Counted from the first letter of the stretch, positions 4,064 to 51,062 are shown. The stretch: 55,205 bases of DNA from a virus (IMGVR_UViG_3300031974_005644:1-55205); one strand, 5' to 3'. The notes: a model not told the origin generated them from the sequence alone. Translations and numbers: made by a program.

Positions 4064-7000
4064 TCACCTGCCAAAAGCATCGTTCCAAATCCTGATCCCC
4101 GCTCGCACCTCGGCATCTCGCTCAGCCTCCCACTTCGCCTTCGTGGCGTCGTCAGGGGCATCCTCAATATCCCTGCGCGCTTTGCGATCTTCCTTGGCAA
4201 TCCATAGCACCTCATCAATGGCGTCTTCCTGCTTTTTGGTGAACTGGTCTGCATAGGGCTCGTCGCTGTCCTCCATGCTTTTGATAGTCTTCAACGCGGC
4301 ATCGGCCTGGCGGGCAATGTCGCTGAAGCGGCTGTCGTAGAAATACTCCGAACGTTCGTTGACGAAACGGCGAACCACCGGCACGTCGTTCCGATGGGTA
4401 GGCCCGTCACCAGCCAGCACGGTCACCATCCCTTCTACCAGGCGCCATTGCGGCCCTACATAGCCCTTGACCAGCGCCTCGGCGCCAGAAGCGCTCAGTG
4501 GGTCAACATTCCACGCTTCTTTGACCCAGTTCGGCCCGAACCGCGTGCCGCCCATCATCCCGTGCAGTGTTTGCATCAGGCCTGTCAGCGCTTTTTCTTC
4601 ATAGTCGCGGTACGCCACCGGGTCATAGGTGTCGTCACCGAAGCTGCGCCGGTAAATCGTGCTTCCGAAAGAGGTTTCGTTGTTCGCCACATTCAAGAAT
4701 GGCTCAGCCACGCTCGGAATCAGCGTGTCGGTCGGCATGAAACTGGTCATGAACGCGCTCAGCGACACGCCAACGGCCTCTGCCGGGCTCGCATTACCCC
4801 GAACGGCCCGACCCACCATCCGGCCCATGGCGTACGGCACGTTGTAGCCATAGGCAATCGGCCATTTGATAAAGGTGTCCTCATCAATAAACGCAGTCAG
4901 CTCGCGTCCCAGCGACCACTTCCCGGCCGCGTCTCCCAGTGGCTCGCCTTCCTCATCGTCGCCCTCAAGCAAGGACTCCACCAAGCCAGCCACCATCAAA
5001 CCCAGCATCGCGCGGCGAGTCCACTTGCTGCGAGCGGCAGCTTTCAGCATGGCAAAGTTGCCCTGCATGGCGGCGTTGAAGAACACATAGAAAGCACTCG
5101 GCCACTGCAGTTCGCCCTTCTGGTTGAAGTTCACAGTGGTGTCCTTCGCCAGCCGTGCCGATTCCTGCTTGCTCAAGCCGCGGTCACGGGCAGCTTTGTA
5201 GATCGCAAGACGGGTGGTGTTCTCGAAGATCTCGTTGTAACGCTCAAGCATGTTGAAGAAGCCGGAAACGCCCCCCTTCACACCCTGCACTGCAATGTTC
5301 GGAACCCCCTTCCGCTGCTGATCCACCAGCCTCTGGAACTCTGCCTTTATGTCGTCGACACCTGTGAGGCCATAGGCGCCAGTCGTACCGCCTGACTCCA
5401 GAAACTCGCGATACAACGGGCTGCCCTCGATTACCCAGCCCTTATCCTTGCCGCGAACCGCACCAACCAGACCAGCACGCAGATTCTTCATCACATCGAA
5501 GGCAAACCCCTTCGGGTCTTTCATGTCTGCGCCAAAGGCGTTCAGAAAAGCCGTTTGCACGTCACGAACAAAGTTGGGCAAAGCGAACTCGGGGTTGTAC
5601 ATCGTCAACGTCCGACCAAACAGCCGCGTGGCGGCGCCGATGCCCTTCAGCACCCAGCTCAGCTGCTCGCCCGCCATGTTCTTCAACTGCTTGGCCAGCC
5701 GTTTGTTCTGGAACTCCATCACCACCAACGCGCCGTCTACCCGCGCCATGAAGATTTCATCGCGGCGGTAAAGATCATTGATGCTCGGCACGTACTGAAC
5801 ATCGTCTTTGGTCACCATTCGGCCCTTGCCGTCCATCTGCGGCTTGCCAGTTTTAGGGTCAACCACCGGCACCTTCACGGTGCGCGCCATCTTCGGGTAC
5901 TCCGCCGGAGTCATCACTCGCCAGTAGTCACCTGCGGGGCCGCTGATGAGGCCTTCATTGCCGCTGGTTTCCAGAATCAGGTTGTAGACCGCTCGGCCGA
6001 CGCGATTCTTCTCAGCACGAACGAAGGTCTTCTGGGCATCAAGCAATGCGACAGCCAGCGGGTCTTCAGCGCGGGATGCCCGACCAAAGGCCTCACGGAT
6101 CACCGTCGACCGCTGATCGAACCCGTTGCCGGTGCCCTGCCCCTGTTCTTCGGGGTCAACGACGGACTTCAGCGGCACATAGTGCTGATACCCGGTGGTC
6201 AGGTCCTGGTACTGCTGCGCCGAGATCAGCCCAGCCTCGCGCATCAGGTTCAGCTTCTGCCGATTGATCGCCTGCACCACGCGGGACACCTCAGCCAGCG
6301 CGTCACGCTGTTCCTGCGGCAGTGCAGCCACTTCGGCAAGAATCTTCTTCGCCTGCCGGTTGGTCATGCCCGACCCACCATCGGGGAACATGCTGTTCCG
6401 CTCGGCAATGGCCGCGTTGCGCTCCTGAGCGTGCAGCGCATACAGGTAGTCACTGGCCTGCTTGAAGCTCACGCCAGCCTTGTTCATCACCTTGAACAGC
6501 GCCTTGGTCGTGTCCTTCAGATCGTCCAGGCGCGTCTGCGTGCGGCCGTAGAAGGTCTTCTCCAGGCTGCCGGGGTCACGCTCGTCAGGAATCGCAACGC
6601 CCTTGCCCTTCAGGAACTTCACGGCACGCTCGACTTCCGAGAAGCGGTTGATGAACCACGGATACAAGTTGTGGTTAAGCGCCCGCCTGTTGTCGGCGCG
6701 CACTTTGCGGTGCCAAATCCCCCAGCCGCCCCAGTTGGGTGGCAGCAGGGTTGAGATGTCATCCGGGTCGGTGCTGGTTTGATCCTGGCGGCTAAATTTA
6801 ACGTCGGCCCCAGAATCAGAGAACCCGCCATCGGGCGGGTTCTGGGTTACATCCGATTCGCCTTGTCTCGGGCGATCATCTGTCGGATTTCGGCGCTCGC
6901 CTGCTTCATTTCTTGCCGCAACGATTCGATCTCGGACGCCGTCAGCGTCCTGACCTGCTCTTTCGTTGGAGACTTTGGCTCGAGCTTGTTCACTTGTTCC

Positions 7001-32440: not shown

Positions 32441-33217
32441 TCAGGCTCTCCAATTGGGCGCCGGCCGGTGGCGGTCGCGGGTTTGCGGCTTGCAGATGGC
32501 ATAGCGCCGCATCACAAAGGCGTATCGGCTGGCGGCCATCAGGTCGTCAGCCTCCTTCACGATCTTTCCGTCTTTGCGGTGGTACAGCCGAAACTCGTCC
32601 CACCAGTCCGACAGGTGAGCGGCGACCTTGAACGTGCCGATCTGCATGGCATCAAGCATTTCCGAGATGCCGGCCTCAACCGACACCCGCGACACGTTCG
32701 TTTCGCCTTCGCTGCCCGCCTCGGGAAGCTGGGCAATCTCGTGCAGCATGTTCAGACCCTGGCCCCGGTACTGCTCAGCCAGTTGAATGCCGGTGCCCTT
32801 CTCGGTCTGCAGGCCGTCAGCCGGCCATGCAACGGGGATCCACACGCCACGCGCCTTGATCGCCGCGGCGTGAGTGACCGGCGTCTTCTGCGCGACCCGA
32901 TAGGTGTCGTACAGATACATCGTGTCGGTGTCTCGATCCCAGGCGAACCAAGCTGCAGCGGTCGGGTGATCCCACCCGAAGTCCATGCCGCAGATACGTG
33001 GCCAATGGGCCGGAAACGGAAACAGGTTGAACTTGATCGACTCTTCGTCGACCGGGAATATCGCGCCGCTGCCCAGTGCCGGAATGCCTTGAGACCGGGC
33101 CTTGCGTAAGTGCGCTGGTGTCGAGGCCAGCAGTTCCGCCTTGGTCTTGGCGTCAAGATGAGGCACATTGTCCCAGCCCGCCATCACCAGGTACTTCGAA
33201 GGTGAAACTTCAGGCAT
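32441..33217 (-). CDS. terL: terminase large subunit, C-terminal piece (end of ATPase/lid + RNase H-like nuclease)
   Basis: GWDNVPHL...[39 protein letters not shown] at 33217 overlaps the HNH stop. Confidence 0.88.
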
Positions 33218-33764
33218 AACTAATGCCCTTGGCCAAATTCTCGCGGGCACTTATCACTTGCAAGTTGTGTGCGACGTGCAGGCCGCACACGTTGATTCCC
33301 TTGAGGGGAACGATGTGGTCAACGTGCATCACCAACTCCTGCGGGTCATCGCACGCCACACAGGCCGCTAGTTTGGCCTGCAGGTCCATCGCTTCGCGGT
33401 AAATGGCGCGGATCGCGGCGTCGTTCTCCCTGGCGCCTGATCTCATCAGCGCTTTGCGCATGCGTTGCGCCTTGGCCTTGTTAGAGCGGTGCGCAGGGTC
33501 TAGTTGCCGCCTTGAGTTGTAGGAGGCAAGGTGTGACTTGTTCGCGCGCTTCCATGCCAGGGATGTGGCGCGGTCGATGTCTCCCTTGATCGCGTAGCGA
33601 GCCATCCGGCGGGCGCGCGCGCATTCCGTGCAACGGGACTCGTAGCGTGTGCTGGCTTTGCCTTGACGCGTGGTGTACGGGTAACTGTAGAAATGATCCA
33701 GAGACAGGAGACGCCCGCAGGTGATGCAAGGTCGCTCGCCGGCGGTGATGACGGTGTAGGCCAT
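33210..33764 (-). CDS. HNH homing endonuclease inserted in terL
   Basis: CxxC...CxxC zinc finger; HVDHIVPL...[22 protein letters not shown]. Confidence 0.9.
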
Positions 33765-33769
33765 GTCGT

Positions 33770-34516
33770 TCAGTTGCCTTTCGGCATCCCGTTGGGCAGG
33801 AAGCTCTTCACCGTCTCTGTCACGCCTTCAAGCGGCGTGAACGTGATGGCGACCATGCCGCCGGTTGTTGCGGTACGGATCAGGCACTCGCCGTAAATGT
33901 CGATGGGCGGCTCTTCGTCGAGCCAGATCACGTCCTGCTCGGTGCCCTCAAAAGCCCCGCGGCCCTGCTGGTAGCTCTTGAGGCCCAGTCGCGACCATCC
34001 GCCGCTGACGTGCTCCACCATCACCGTGTCGAGAAGGTCCTGAACGCCTTGCTTCCAGTTCAAATCGCCGATGGCGTCGCCATAAATCAGCCCGGTACCG
34101 CTGACAGACTTCGGCGCGCCGCCCATCACCGAACCGACCAGCTTGGCTTGCACGATGTCGCGCGTCGTTTCGTTGGTCTTGCCAGCAGCCCATGCGCTGA
34201 TCGGGCGAGTGAACCGGCGGCCAGGCCACCAGTCGGGATACTGTCCCGTCAAATGCAGCGCTATTTCGTAGCCGCCTGCGCCTTCCGATTTACCGATGCG
34301 ATTGGCCGCCAAGAAACACCGCTCGCGATACGTCGCGCCGGCCGCGAAGAACTCCAGGTGTTTGGGGTACAACTCACGCCGCAACGGCCCTTCGTCCGGG
34401 AAGAACGAATCAATCTTCCGACGACTCTTCCGACGCTCCGCTTCCTCCAGCAACTCCAATAGCTGTAGCCGCTCCGAGCGCGGCAACTGCTCCCAGTTTG
34501 GCGGCAAGTCGGGCAT
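33770..34516 (-). CDS. terL: terminase large subunit, N-terminal piece (ATPase core, P22 gp2-like)
   Basis: Walker A AANRIGKS, Walker B VIWLDEEP, coupling motif TFTP. Confidence 0.9.
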
Positions 34517-35030
34517 TCAGATCCTCGTCCGAGATGTTGCGTACATCGACGTTGGCGTCGACCGAGACTTTGTCGCCGTACTCTTTCGAGGCGATCTTCG
34601 CGGCTCGCCAGCGGTAGTGATGAGCGAGCTCCTTGGCCTTCTTCAACTCGAACTCATCCTTGGCGAGATCGATCCTCGATTCCGCCTTCTCGTCCCAAAG
34701 TTTCGCCGTCGCAGTACGGGCCTCGCGCACGCGCGCGGAACGAACCGGATCTGCGTCAATCCACACCAGCAATCGAGTCAGCGAAGCGCCTGCCTCTGCG
34801 GCAATGTCCGTGAGGCTCTTACGGTCGATGATGGCCTCGCAAAGACGCGAGATGCCGTAGTTGTCCATCGCCTCTACAGTCGCGCCGCGCTTGGTCTTGC
34901 ACGTCTTCGGCTTAGCCGCCGCCTTTGCCTTCGGCTGGCTGGACTTCGGCACCGGCGTCTTCTTGGGCGCCGCCTTCTTCCCCGCTGGCTTGGTGGGCGC
35001 CTTCGTCGCGCCGCGCGCCTTCGTGCTCAC
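34410..35030 (-). CDS. terS: terminase small subunit (Sf6/P22-like) with a basic N-terminal tail
   Basis: HTH region and RWRAAKIASKEYGDK motif; position upstream of terL. Confidence 0.8.
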   Translation of the reverse strand: MSTKARGATKAPTKPAGKKAAPKKTPVPKSSQPKAKAAAKPKTCKTKRGATVEAMDNYGISRLCEAIIDRKSLTDIAAEAGASLTRLLVWIDADPVRSARVREARTATAKLWDEKAESRIDLAKDEFELKKAKELAHHYRWRAAKIASKEYGDKVSVDANVDVRNISDEDLNARLAAKLGAVAALGAATAIGVAGGSGASEESSED

Positions 35031-35290
35031 TTCTCGTAATCCACCGGCGGTTCGCTGCTGTCGAGCGCTTGCCGCTTGTTCTTCCGGCGTTCCTCTCCTG
35101 ATCGGCGGTCTCTCCGGTCACCGTGCTCGTTGCGCCATGACCAGAACTTGTGAGCCAGCAGCACCAACAGGTAAATCACCGTCAGCACCGCAATCAGCTC
35201 CTGAGACGTCGCCCCGCTCACCATTGCCGCCACGGGCGGCGTCAGCTTGGCGGTCTCCATTGGCAGGTCTGCGAGGATCTGTGTCGACAT
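35027..35290 (-). CDS. putative holin
   Basis: Small protein with a hydrophobic helix (LIAVLTVIYLLVLLA) and a highly charged C-tail; first late CDS after the RNA region. Confidence 0.55.
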   Translation of the reverse strand: MSTQILADLPMETAKLTPPVAAMVSGATSQELIAVLTVIYLLVLLAHKFWSWRNEHGDRRDRRSGEERRKNKRQALDSSEPPVDYEK

Positions 35291-35299
35291 GCGCTCTCC

Positions 35300-35718
35300 A
35301 TCCGCCCGCGCCTGGCGCTGGCTCTCTGCGTGAATTGACGCCCGATAACGGGGGCGAACCGGCCCATCACCCTCAACGATTCAGCCCCGGAGTTGTTCAC
35401 TAAGGGCTATGCGGGTCGGGGGCTGCCGGGTTACTCGCCACGTCCGGCTTGGCGGGGGTGAATAGATGCCCCGCATACACGGGGCCTCCCTCGCTATCGG
35501 CTATGCGATGCTGGACGGGGAGAAGGGTGAAGTGGTTGCCGGTTACAGCGTCCGGCGCGCTTGCTGCGTTGCAGCGGCTGGAAGCGCTGGTGGTCATCTG
35601 CGGGTTACTGGTCCCGCGACCTGATGCCACTCAGGTCAGTTCATGCCCTTCGGTCGGCTGGCGAGCCGCTTTCGTTTGAGGGACCGGCCCCGTTAGCCTG
35701 GAACGGGGCAACCGCATA
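35300..35718 (-). ncRNA. candidate structured RNA with three GG-AC-loop-GT-AA-CC hairpins
   Basis: No convincing ORF; dense inverted repeats; motif copies at 35425-35448, 35538-35556 and 35600-35617. Confidence 0.5.
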
Positions 35719-35719
35719 T

Positions 35720-35760
35720 TGGTAGCGGCGGGTCGAGTCGAACGACCTATATTTGCCGCG
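35720..35760 (-). tRNA. 3' half of an interrupted tRNA(CAT) (Met or Ile2)
   Basis: GGTCG-TTCGACT-CGACC T-arm, then CGCCGCT-A-CCA. Confidence 0.85.
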
Positions 35761-36190
35761 CCTCAAGGTACTGAATGATGTTTTCGACTTTACGCTTCAC
35801 GGCAGGCAGGCTATCTCCAAGACGCCCAATCAAAGTATTGCAATGCCTGCACAAAATCCCGCGCGGTTTTTGGCTTTCGTGGCAGTGATCAAAAACCAGA
35901 TCTTTCTTGCTTAAGCAAACCTGGCATTCATCAATGCCTAAACCGAGAAGTGCGCCTACGCTCAGCACATCTAGTTTGTAGCGGGCTGCAATGACCTTAT
36001 CTTGGTTCCGCGCTTCCCATGATCTAACAGCATCTTTGTGCCGCTCTCGGTTCGCCGGATACCAGACCTCTCTAACGTATTTGTTGTGGCATGCCTTACA
36101 TTTTGATGATCTACCAGTTTTACTGGCGGACTTCTTTGAAAATGATGCCTCTGGCAGATGCTCTCCGCACGAAATACATTCGTAGATCAT
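35747..36190 (-). CDS. endonuclease VII-family (His-Me finger) endonuclease inserted in the tRNA
   Basis: CxxC...CxxC N-terminal finger; CQVC...DHCH...RGILCRHCNTLIG; AGGA SD then ATG at 36190; AT-rich relative to the genome. Confidence 0.88.
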   Translation of the reverse strand: MIYECISCGEHLPEASFSKKSASKTGRSSKCKACHNKYVREVWYPANRERHKDAVRSWEARNQDKVIAARYKLDVLSVGALLGLGIDECQVCLSKKDLVFDHCHESQKPRGILCRHCNTLIGRLGDSLPAVKRKVENIIQYLEARQI

Positions 36191-36200
36191 GGGCGATCCT

Positions 36201-36239
36201 GTTATGAGCCACGCGGAATGCCGGTTTCCTACAGCCGCT
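36201..36239 (-). tRNA. 5' half of an interrupted tRNA(CAT) (Met or Ile2)
   Basis: AGCGGCTG-TA-GGAA-ACCGGCA-TTCC-G-CGTGG-CTCATAA-C: acceptor strand complementary to the 3' half, D-arm, and anticodon loop with CAT. Confidence 0.8.
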
Positions 36240-36244
36240 TCAAA

Positions 36245-36271
36245 CAAAAAACCCGGCGCGGAGGCCGGGCT
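36245..36271 (-). terminator. intrinsic terminator in the late leader
   Basis: GCCCGGC-CTCCGC-GCCGGGT followed by TTTTT. Confidence 0.75.
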
Positions 36272-36274
36272 CAT

Positions 36275-36525
36275 GAATAGCTGAAAACGGGCCGGAGATG
36301 ATCCCGGCTTGCATGCCTGCCACGGTGTAGAACACGACGCCTACACTTTTCGCCGCCGCCCGGTCCTGCATCATCGCTTGCTGGCGATGGCCGTTGCTTG
36401 CCGGATTATCGCTGCACATCATCACTGCGCACTTCCGCTTTCAAGCGATGCCGTCCGGGGCCTCGCGCTACGCACTTGGCTGGTGCCGCATCCTTCAAAG
36501 CTCTCGGCTGTCCGAGATTTCTAAC
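36275..36525 (-). ncRNA. candidate structured RNA between two terminators
   Basis: Multiple hairpins and no convincing ORF. Confidence 0.4.
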
Positions 36526-36528
36526 GAC

Positions 36529-36553
36529 AAAAGCCCGCTGATCGGCGGGCTTC
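36529..36553 (-). terminator. tR'-like terminator
   Basis: AAGCCCGCC-GAT-CAGCGGGCTTTT just after the pR'-like promoter. Confidence 0.75.
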
Positions 36554-36568
36554 TTAGGCAACTACTGC

Positions 36569-36608
36569 AATGTACCTGAATGGTGCATCCTTAATTCCAG
36601 AATGTCAA
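36569..36608 (-). promoter_or_regulatory. pR'-like late promoter
   Basis: TTGACA (36608-36603)-17 nt-CACCAT, followed by a -10-like TACATT (possible sigma pause element), directly downstream of Q. Confidence 0.6.
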
Positions 36609-37075
36609 ATCGCCCTGATCCGTGGGCCGTAGGTCTCCATCATCGCGCGGTCGTGCGTGTTGTTCACGTAGTAGCGAACCGCCTCACGTAGCAGCCCCAT
36701 GGCGCGGTCATGCAGGATCGTGACCAACTCACGGTCAGCCTGGGCGGCGTTCGCGATCTCCTGCAGCGACATGATGCGAATGAAGCGCGCACGGATGATG
36801 TCGCGGGCCTGGCTGTGCAGCTCGATCACTCGGGCGTCGATCATCCGATACAGCCCCTGCCCGTCTTCGTCGGCTCGCATGTACTCGGCAAAGGCTGGAT
36901 CGGCATGTGTGCCCAGCGGCCGGCTGAACCGGGCCTGCTGCTCCACGCTGCCACCGCTCCCCAGGCCGGGCCGCTGCACCCTCGCCCATCCGCCCCAGTC
37001 GCGCATCACCTCGGTCAGCACGTCGTTGCGGCGATAGCGGGCCTTCACGCTCTCCATCTTGATCGCTGCCATCAC
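36605..37075 (-). CDS. late antiterminator Q-like protein
   Basis: WGGWAR N-terminal motif, C-terminal sigma4-like HTH, position at the end of the nin region. Confidence 0.7.
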   Translation of the reverse strand: MMAAIKMESVKARYRRNDVLTEVMRDWGGWARVQRPGLGSGGSVEQQARFSRPLGTHADPAFAEYMRADEDGQGLYRMIDARVIELHSQARDIIRARFIRIMSLQEIANAAQADRELVTILHDRAMGLLREAVRYYVNNTHDRAMMETYGPRIRAI

Positions 37076-50141: not shown

Positions 50142-50582
50142 ATGGCACGCGGAGTCAATAAGGTGATCTTGATCGGCAACCTCGGCAAAGACCCCGAGGT
50201 TCGCTACTTCCCCAGCGGCGATGCCATCGCCAACGCCACGTTGGCCACCACCGAGAGCTGGAAGGACAAGCAGACCGGCGAGGCCAAAGAGGCGACCGAG
50301 TGGCATGCACTGACCTTCCCCGGAAAGCTCGGCGAGATCGCCGGGAAGTACCTCACCAAAGGTTCGAAGGTCTACGTCGAGGGCAGCCTGCGCACCCGCA
50401 AATGGCAGGACAAGGAAGGCCGCGACCGGTACACGACCGAGATTCGCGTCAGTGACCTGCAGATGCTCGACGGGAAGCCGGAGGGGCAGCATCAGGCCCC
50501 GGCGCGTCAGCATCAACCGCAGCGGCAAGCCGCGCAGAGCGAGCCTGCTGGGTTTGATGATGACCCAATGATCCCGTTCTGA
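50142..50582 (+). CDS. ssb: single-stranded DNA-binding protein
   Basis: [22 protein letters not shown]...[16 protein letters not shown]; acidic tail ending IPF. Confidence 0.97.
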
Positions 50583-50585
50583 CCC

Positions 50586-51062
50586 ATGCGAGCCTGCAAA
50601 CAATGCGGCGCCGAGAAGGCTGTTGCGGATTTCTACTCAAGTCCTCAGCAGCCGTGTAAGGAATGCCACAAGGGGAATGCTAGGGAACATCGGCTGTCTC
50701 GGCTTGATGAGGCGCGGGCCTATGACCGTCGAAGAGCGAACGCCCCGCACCGGGTCTCCGCTCGCAAGGCATACGCAAAAAGCCCTCGCGGGCAGGAGCG
50801 GATGCGGATCGGAAAGGCCGGGTATGCCGAGAAGCATGCCGCAAGGCGGGCCGCTAACGTCGCGCTGGGAAACGCAGTGCGCGATGGCCGAGTCCTAAAG
50901 GGGACATGCCTTGTCTGCGGCGAAGAGAAATCGCAGGGCCATCACTTTGACTATTCCAGGCCGTTGGAAGTCGTCTGGCTATGCGTTCACCACCACGCTG
51001 CGGTTCACAAAGTGGACCGGGAGATAAAGCGCATCACGGCTCCCAAGGGGCATTCGGCATGA
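50586..51062 (+). CDS. HNH-like zinc-finger endonuclease
   Basis: CKQC...CKEC; CLVCG...HHFDYSRPLEVVWLC..HH..VH. Confidence 0.7.
   Translation: MRACKQCGAEKAVADFYSSPQQPCKECHKGNAREHRLSRLDEARAYDRRRANAPHRVSARKAYAKSPRGQERMRIGKAGYAEKHAARRAANVALGNAVRDGRVLKGTCLVCGEEKSQGHHFDYSRPLEVVWLCVHHHAAVHKVDREIKRITAPKGHSA

Follow-up and report, generated by a model that had tools for sequence, protein, structure and literature searches.

Two Putative Homing Endonuclease Genes in a Marine Prophage, at the Junction of a Two-Piece Terminase and Within a tRNA-Met

The Locus and the Data

We analysed a marine prophage, the complete 55,205-base provirus record IMGVR_UViG_3300031974_005644 of IMG/VR, which as a whole is called the window below. 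Two of its nuclease genes are here named HNH-1 and HNH-2: HNH-1 stands between two pieces of the gene for the large terminase (TerL), and HNH-2 within a tRNA-Met gene. The TerL, small terminase (terS) and tRNA genes and both nuclease genes are all encoded on the minus strand. An original prediction, made from the sequence alone, had seen in these two inserts a shared strategy of gene splitting by endonuclease genes devoid of splicing elements. HNH-1 and HNH-2 both combine a nuclease fold, the absence of an intron or intein, and a presence/absence pattern with a clean empty site; both inserts are indeed polymorphic in this way among near-identical phages.

The polymorphism was read from public sequencing runs, of which 20 rows from 10 studies carry at least part of the TerL/tRNA stretch; none of the 22 runs listed is an RNA data set. 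Empty sites were sought in the Logan contigs of four runs that contain only about half of the words of the stretch (X5, X6, X8 and X13). The contigs used are 95-99% alike to the window and come from other studies. They provide alleles free of the homing endonuclease gene (HEG) at both sites.

An Endonuclease Gene at the Terminase Junction

The first piece of the large terminase, TerL-N (33770..34516, minus strand), matches Pfam Terminase_6N (E 1.1e-12) over profile positions 1-152 of 215 and corresponds to the ATPase core up to just past the FTPLEG strand; searched alone against PDB, it found no match at E<=0.01. The second piece, TerL-C (32441..33217, minus strand; Pfam Terminase_6C, E 1.1e-18), occupies an open frame at 33250..32441 and likely starts at the ATG at 33217-33215. 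Since its residues 48-245 match the nuclease domain of the P22 terminase (4DKW, E 9.4e-44), its first ~47 residues belong to the ATPase fold, and TerL-C thus comprises the last strand and lid of that fold, followed by the nuclease domain. The split site falls inside Terminase_6N and not at the interdomain linker: in L048, a relative with an intact gene, Terminase_6N covers residues 40-270 and the equivalent of the junction lies at about residue 210. Aligned with one-piece TerLs, the two pieces are collinear and carry only about 5-6 extra residues on each side.

Between them, the HNH-1 open reading frame (ORF; 33764..33210, 184 residues) begins 5 bases past the TerL-N stop and encodes a zinc finger and an HNH nuclease; it matches phrog_1035 (E 3.6e-18) and its HNH-type motifs are visible in the sequence. 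At its other end, start and stop overlap in the motif ATGCCTGA, whose ATG opens TerL-C (M-P-E) and whose TGA closes HNH-1. The mobile segment of 547 bases (33215..33761, minus strand) is almost exactly coextensive with this ORF. It is skipped in one contig each of X5, X6 and X8, three different studies, where 33214 is joined to 33762 with a 3-base ambiguity. In the HEG-less allele rebuilt by script from this joint, TerL-N ends in KGN and a stop, 5 bases follow, and an ATG then opens M-P-E-V-S-P-S-K-Y in another frame. As the HEG-less allele already consists of two ORFs, TerL is split with or without HNH-1. The idea that HNH-1 had split TerL therefore has to be abandoned, and all 30 rows of the clade described below (30/30) have a split gene as well. 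HNH-1 lies immediately behind the TerL-C start codon of the HEG-less allele, uses the ATG and the ribosome-binding site of that TerL-C, and re-creates the TerL-C ATG at its own 3' end.

The repeat that flanks this insert is the 3-base ATG, and not ATGCC as first proposed. The upstream ATGCC in the TerL-N tail was considered as the second copy and discarded: L009 has ATCCC there, and the likeness looks coincidental. Junction repeats of ~3 bases are in any case weak evidence either way. The notion that a nuclease C-terminus survives in the N-half tails of insert-less relatives was likewise dropped, any likeness beyond the shared ATGCC being unconvincing. By eye, TerL-N ends on the sense codon AAC, and a second AAC stands 2 bases beyond the stop in the TerL-C frame (33762-33775, minus strand), so that ribosomes hopping over this short distance would make TerL as one chain from the HEG-less allele. 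The recurrence is probably due to chance, and the pattern is not common to the relatives.

An Endonuclease Gene Within tRNA-Met

ARAGORN places the 5' part of a tRNA-Met(CAT) at 36201..36239 (minus strand), with the acceptor 5' strand, the D arm, the anticodon stem 5' strand, the anticodon loop CTCATAA and one more base. The 3' part, at 35720..35748 (minus strand), holds one variable-loop base, the T arm, the acceptor 3' strand and ACCA, and is kept in the HEG-less contigs. With introns allowed, the program joins both parts into a tRNA-Met(CAT) at 36239..35720 with a gap of about 440 bases; the interrupted tRNA is seen only with this option, a default ARAGORN scan of the record giving 0 tRNAs and hence no second tRNA. 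An exact search of viral contigs for the tRNA 3' part returned 0 matches.

The HNH-2 mobile segment of 452 bases (35749..36200, minus strand) separates the two parts and has a G+C content of about 0.48-0.51, vs about 0.63 around it. The HNH-2 ORF (36190..35747, 147 residues) encodes a zinc finger and an Endonuclease VII-type His-Me nuclease (Pfam Endonuclease_7, E 3.9e-12; phrog_2633, E 3.1e-24). It occupies 442 of the 452 bases, leaving 10 outside, and its last codon and stop lie in the retained tRNA 3' part, beyond the true end of the insert at 35749.

Contigs of all four runs (X5, X6, X8 and X13; 4 studies) show the empty site: 35748 is joined to 36201, the 452 bases are skipped, and the same 8 other letters stand in between. 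These 8 letters complete a canonical 76-base tRNA-Met(CAT) whose anticodon stem pairs perfectly and whose variable loop has 5 bases. This tRNA passes ARAGORN at threshold 115; intact tRNA-Mets of relatives pass at 95-115. Because the window lacks these 8 bases, the HEG-less tRNA is not a deletion product of the form found there; it follows that HNH-2 was inserted and damaged the tRNA. The AGG repeat announced by the original prediction is present, as AGG begins the insert and also directly follows it. A tRNA that tolerates being in two parts is contradicted by the replacement of 8 bases and by the lack of a ribozyme. With no ribozyme, an ORF filling the insert and 8 bases lost, nothing is likely to restore the tRNA, and the interrupted tRNA-Met is most likely a dead accessory gene, as judged from its sequence. 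It was also considered that the 3' end of the insert might re-pair the anticodon stem, through the join 36201|35760. This was rejected, since that join is the best-scoring of 1426 tried and the true empty site has other bases.

As regards the proposed co-conversion of the interval between the two inserts, run X13 hints at HNH-1 being present with HNH-2 absent, through separate short contigs only.

Absence of Splicing Elements

The claim that neither insert carries a splicing element was borne out by searches for Rfam families, group I introns and inteins, all of them blank. Over the whole window, Rfam gave 0 hits at the gathering score; at E<=10, no group I intron was found within 35000-36800, and the only matches were three weak ones at chance level (Trp_leader, rsmX and a toxic small RNA) over terminators. 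Pfam detected no intein or Hint domain in the proteins of the window. An HNH-2 encoded by a group I intron was therefore rejected: no Intron_gpI match at E<=10, 10/452 bases outside the ORF, and 8 tRNA bases replaced. A fractured TerL gene with a split intein was rejected too, since the alignment reveals no intein halves and there is no intein or Hint match. Indeed, the only about 5-6 extra residues on each TerL side leave no room for intein halves.

Other features that had been proposed were confirmed. Both inserts are nearly bare ORFs, the absent segments of 547 and 452 bases being essentially filled by them. Both encode a zinc finger with a His-Me nuclease, as indicated by the fingers in the translations and by the phrog_1035 match of HNH-1 and the Endonuclease_7 match of HNH-2. 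Both take their 3' ends from host sequence, the stop of HNH-1 lying in the junction motif and that of HNH-2 in the tRNA 3' part.

The Nuclease Families and Their Sites

CxxC...CxxC fingers are visible in the nuclease translations. The third nuclease-like gene suspected beside ssb is real: HNH-3 (50586..51062, plus strand) is a free-standing nuclease gene of the same superfamily, matching phrog_2340 (E 4e-34) and phrog_1035 (E 2.9e-4). It directly follows a complete ssb ORF (50142-50582), and it shares about 80 bases with the beginning of the next ORF. The description of the nucleases as unrelated did not hold, because HNH-1, HNH-2 and HNH-3 all match both phrog_1035 and phrog_2340; these common PHROG families make them distant paralogues. 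HNH-1 and HNH-3 are 26% identical over 163 residues (E 1.7e-6), and the N-terminal fingers of HNH-2 and of the nuclease of L002 (see below) align with E 4e-4.

HNH-2 alone found no relative among the viral contigs, and its relatives were drawn from three collections. They amount to ten full-length loci, eight of which are distinct (L093 is near L101, and L102 near L103). Among these eight, four abut a tRNA-Met, one lies inside a tRNA and three do neither. In the abutting loci (L093/L101, L100, L104 and L130), the nuclease gene lies just upstream of an intact tRNA-Met(CAT), whose first base falls anywhere from 8 bases ahead of the match end to 10 bases behind it, and two of the four belong to tRNA arrays of 5 and 20 genes. 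The nuclease gene of L092 lies inside a tRNA-Met, whose joined model passes threshold 120 vs 105 for the unjoined one. L105 carries its nuclease gene 60 bases before a tRNA-Leu in an 18-gene array, and L102/L103 and L106 have no adjacent tRNA. Several HNH-2 relatives lack a stop codon of their own and their frame runs into the adjoining tRNA; in L093 (2992-3494) and L130 (1504-1979), it reads through the tRNA-Met 5' half until the anticodon loop CTCATAA, whose TAA serves as its stop codon.

HNH-1 has relatives at seven loci, five of them distinct, of which only L002 places the gene between TerL halves (1/5). L004 has the HNH domain of its relative between a terS-like ORF and an intact TerL, and in L003, L005/L006 and L007/L008 the relatives are not flanked by TerL, according to tblastn. 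In L007 (3054-4204), as in L008, the ORF of the HNH-1 relative shares its last ~18 residues with the gene just upstream. It looks as if this nuclease had been inserted near the 3' end of that gene together with a spare copy of the end, which would spare the host gene. When flanks of homologues are scored as gene halves, as had been suggested, nuclease genes are mostly beside genes and inside one in 1/8 (HNH-2) and 1/5 (HNH-1) of the loci.

Two-Piece Terminases in Relatives

A scan of viral contigs with TerL-N yielded 507 relatives, and the best 80, which are 58-77% identical, were kept. Together with L002, L004 and the window they form a set of 83 rows. TerL is in one piece in 45 of them, split into adjacent or overlapping ORFs in 22, and split with inserts of 115-2053 bases at the same site in 13; the remaining three have no C-half in reach, L045 because it ends at the contig end. 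In the two others, L036 and L064, the ORFs that come after TerL-N are unrelated and tail-fibre-like, and 5 kb in both directions are free of any TerL-C; these phages may lack the second half or encode it at some other place in their genomes. The 6.4-kb locus L017 harbours two split TerL copies (733-2105 and 5046-6257), the second with an extra frame break in its C-half.

In a quick maximum-likelihood tree, the TerL of the window belongs to a 30-row clade with a Shimodaira-Hasegawa-like approximate likelihood ratio test (SH-aLRT) support of 96. Every member is split: 19 have adjacent pieces without insert, nine have inserts (the window included) and two have no C-half within 5 kb. The C-half starts with ATG, GTG or TTG in all listed relatives, mostly in the motif NTGCCTGA, and the ORF upstream of it, be it the TerL-N tail, a nuclease gene or another ORF, mostly stops at the TGA of this motif. 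The overlaps between halves differ among relatives (-1, -4, -8, -14 and -23 bases), which fits separate initiation of the two pieces and not one common recoding signal.

Nuclease genes have landed at this junction more than once. L002 holds there an HNH-1 relative (47% identical; Pfam HNH, E 1.1e-9), and L037/L038 an Endonuclease_7-type gene (Pfam, E 1.4e-22), which starts at ATGCC and ends over the ATGCC of the C-half. The other junction inserts are ORFs with a weak family match or none. L037/L038 sit among intact TerLs, beside L067, whose TerL is intact (SH-aLRT 96). Grouping all 37 split rows as one clade is rejected by the approximately unbiased test (p-AU 0.001), a test weakened by the post hoc choice of the group from the tree. 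A TerL that is intact when the nuclease gene is absent is not found for the window and is seen only in L067 as compared with L037/L038.

A large protein collection contains 3554 clusters that match TerL-N at E<=1e-30 and are 136-434 residues long; the best 120 of these are all 228-286 residues long, so that two-piece terminases are common. The short N-half records include isolate and metagenome-assembled genome (MAG) records named Cupriavidus sp. (on a 4.49-Mb contig) and Comamonas sp. Among GenBank phages, none is closely related to the region: a DNA search gave 7 records, whose identity is 60-80% throughout and whose coverage is <=11%, and a protein search with TerL-N gave 410 records, every one less than 60% identical. 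The best of them, EBPR podovirus 1, has an intact TerL, and Xanthomonas phage SAC has only part of terS in common with the window. A literature search found no two-piece TerL devoid of both intron and intein; subscription journals and supplements were outside its coverage, so that such a case may have been published. The literature does describe terminase genes interrupted by group I introns, both in Jug phages and in Twort.

Homing as the Probable Explanation

HNH-1 and HNH-2 are probably free-standing homing endonuclease genes and recent paralogous arrivals, the first behind the TerL-C start and the second breaking a tRNA. Each nuclease would cut the HEG-less allele near its insertion point, repair of the break would copy the nuclease gene into the cut allele, and the insertion would destroy the target site and thereby shield the carrier from cutting. 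The targets of the two families would be the TerL junction and tRNA-Met, the genes settling at or beside them. Being placed behind the start codon of TerL-C, HNH-1 would be translated from the initiation signals of TerL-C itself, and TerL-C would still be made from the new ATG in the junction motif, probably by translational coupling. HNH-1 would then cost TerL nothing, because the gene was already made of two cistrons and the insert keeps the coupling. HNH-2 comes from a family at home beside the tRNA-Met(CAT) genes of phage tRNA arrays. In the window it landed in the anticodon stem, where 8 bases gave way to it, and the accessory tRNA is most likely dead as a result, the cost of HNH-2 being the loss of this one gene.

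The TerL pieces would have to assemble without covalent joining. A complex model of TerL-N with TerL-C scored 0.78, against 0.00 for the best of three controls; this score is reached by 58/80 solved complexes and by 2/110 mismatched pairs, and the complex resembles solved single-chain terminases, so that the pass may show likeness and not binding. At least 78% of contacts are common to the runs, and the partner has a predicted local distance difference test (pLDDT) score of at least 81. In the model, TerL-C residues 3-21 and 40-48 face TerL-N residues 44-76 and 227-241, the first TerL-C strand lying against TerL-N residues 62-69.

The likeness of this complex to single-chain terminases is one of the points against this interpretation, and it is joined by several others. 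The nuclease activity and target sites of HNH-1 and HNH-2 are predicted ones. At the first site, the junction alone is compatible with precise loss of HNH-1 instead of gain. All run data are assembled contigs, in which rare variants and the linkage of the two sites are invisible. As to the HNH-2 family, 3/8 distinct full-length relatives (L102/L103, L105 and L106) have no adjacent tRNA-Met, and the weaker hits L131-L134, from one Rickettsiales MAG, have no tRNA within 1.5 kb.

The idea of a gene-splitting strategy is partly supported. In its full form, it would assume a dedicated class of minimal homing elements that choose sites tolerating a two-part gene and supply stop, start and ribosome-binding signals. 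This could account for the use of the same TerL position by two nuclease families (HNH-1 in the window and L002, the Endonuclease_7-type gene in L037/L038), both beginning at or next to an ATG and ending over the TerL-C ATG, as well as for the intact-TerL sister L067 of the L037/L038 clade. The rejection of a single clade for the 37 split rows (p-AU 0.001, with the group named after the tree was seen) and the nuclease gene inside the tRNA-Met of L092 point the same way. However, the window's own HEG-less allele is split already, 19/30 clade rows are split with no insert at all, the tRNA has lost 8 bases with no means of repair, and most family members sit beside genes and not within them. We thus regard such a class as unlikely: what stands of it are mobile genes without intron or intein that repeatedly hit the TerL junction, whereas their splitting role does not. 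The remaining explanations appear far less probable still. HNH proteins of the HK97 gp74 type assist the terminase in HK97-like cos phages, and HNH-1 could be such a packaging accessory instead of a selfish gene, in agreement with its location inside the terS-TerL-portal module and with the HNH domain found between the terS-like ORF and the intact TerL of L004. An accessory is hard to reconcile with the absence of HNH-1 from near-identical phages in three runs, with the empty junction in 19/30 clade rows, with the P22-type nuclease domain that TerL-C itself possesses and with the relatives in L003 and L005-L008 that have no TerL flanks by tblastn, so that we give it very little credence. Hardly more plausible is removal of the interruptions at expression, by which a hidden ribozyme, a split intein or ribosomal hopping would restore the tRNA or a single-chain TerL. 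The ARAGORN intron model does start after U and end in G, and AAC does recur (by eye) 2 bases past the HEG-less stop in the TerL-C frame. Against this stand the lack of a group I intron at E<=10, the ORF taking up 442/452 bases of the insert, the 8 tRNA bases gone, and the collinear TerL halves with about 5-6 extra residues each and no intein hit in Pfam, as well as the varying junction overlaps (-1 to -23 bases) and a C-half that always opens with ATG, GTG or TTG.

Homing by HNH-1 and HNH-2 leaves the origin of the TerL split itself aside. Possibly, although we doubt it, the fission inside the ATPase fold is a heritable and spreading scar of homing-endonuclease invasion. Cassettes may carry the stop of the first half and the M-P-E start of the second; homing with co-conversion may then turn an intact TerL into a two-piece one, as L037/L038 vs L067 suggests, and later loss of the nuclease gene may leave a split gene that works and at whose start codon further nucleases continue to land by preference. 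If this were true, selfish nucleases would be the cause of an architecture found in thousands of prophage terminases.

Comparison with Known Systems

Genes in pieces are described for T4-like phages in the review PMC2988022 and in PMC3045599: mobE lies in the nrdA gene of Aeromonas phage Aeh1, mobA stands between genes 60 and 39 of T4, and seg43(25) is found in gene 43 of phage 25. As in the window, a free-standing nuclease gene lies between two ORFs equalling one enzyme; introns and inteins are absent, and reassembly of the pieces is required. For gene 43, the review raises the possibility that the nuclease invaded a gene already split (PMC2988022), which is the same situation as found for HNH-1 and TerL. 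Unlike these cases, the host gene in the window is a large terminase, cut inside the ATPase fold; its split is fixed in a large clade mostly devoid of the nuclease gene, and HNH-1 stands exactly behind the start codon of the downstream half.

Similarly, the window recalls fractured genes, in which, according to Dassa et al. (2009; PMC2677866), split inteins occur with a nuclease gene between the halves. In both, an essential phage gene, such as that of a terminase, is fragmented and a homing nuclease gene fills the gap. On the contrary, the window has no intein halves or intron, and its pieces would stay separate polypeptides.

HNH-2 resembles two kinds of known elements. It interrupts the anticodon arm of a CAU tRNA gene, as do the nuclease ORFs of group I introns. 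Group I introns with homing endonucleases occur in anticodon loops of bacterial tRNAs, for instance in the tRNA-fMet of Synechocystis with I-Ssp6803I. Unlike them, the insert in the window has no ribozyme and is filled by the ORF, and 8 bases of the tRNA have been lost. The other kind is SegB, characterized in PMC2988022 and PMC13096335 as a free-standing GIY-YIG homing endonuclease of the T4 tRNA gene cluster. Both are free-standing nuclease genes among phage tRNA genes, presumed to cut the tRNA-region DNA of relatives without them, whereas HNH-2 is an Endonuclease VII-type His-Me enzyme, belongs to a family tied to tRNA-Met(CAT) and stands here inside a tRNA and not between tRNAs.

HNH-1 and HNH-2 thus exhibit ordinary selfish-gene behaviour of a known kind, seen with unusual precision. 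The two sites offer a base-exact picture of how intron-less homing nucleases settle, with empty sites that are natural and not reconstructed by inference: one nuclease takes the start codon of an essential gene and returns a new one, the other wrecks a dispensable tRNA. The widespread two-piece TerL is a more interesting by-product than the inserts themselves. Judging from its genes, an essential packaging motor would work while encoded in two pieces cut inside the ATPase fold, and this layout is common. Annotators label the pieces only 'terminase large subunit domain-containing protein', and the layout matters for phage annotation, for phylogenies based on TerL and for the assembly of terminase subdomains.

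Neighbouring Genes and a Variable Cassette

In the order of transcription, the region comprises the Q-like antiterminator gene (37075..36605), a variable cassette, a holin-like gene, terS, TerL-N, HNH-1, TerL-C, a small ORF and the portal gene. The small terminase gene terS (34410..35030, minus strand) matches Pfam Sf6_terminase (E 2.5e-9), and the holin-like gene (35027..35290, minus strand) encodes an 87-residue membrane protein matching phrog_920 (holin; E 2.5e-7). A terminator-like hairpin (36243..36272, minus strand), found by a terminator scan, lies directly upstream of the tRNA. The Q-like antiterminator or sigma-70 region 4 protein (36605..37075, minus strand), encoded upstream of the variable cassette, has Pfam matches to Phage_antitermQ (E 2.9e-5) and Sigma70_r4 (E 8.8e-5), both below the curated cut-offs. 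Queries with Q and with terS returned one locus each.

Besides the tRNA-Met and HNH-2, the variable cassette (35535-36431, 896 bases) includes a terminator and an ORF of 61 residues in which a single stretch is hydrophobic. The cassette is missing from a contig of X13 (joint 35535->36432) and from L090, a relative that lacks the whole tRNA/nuclease cassette and whose late genes differ from those of the window. In a contig of X8, part of it is replaced by 725 other letters. X8 contigs covering 35461-35717 and 36432-36517 have a depth of about 1400-1570, the phage itself being at 37.

A 200-base non-coding block (35335-35534, minus strand) lies between the tRNA cassette and the holin gene and is 75% identical to L090:439-630. 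For the 421-base stretch in its entirety, folding is unremarkable (z -1.38). Between the only two sequences of the block, 7/50 predicted pairs are changed on both sides with pairing kept. Located downstream of the Q-like gene, the block may represent a regulatory module or a leader RNA that is widespread.

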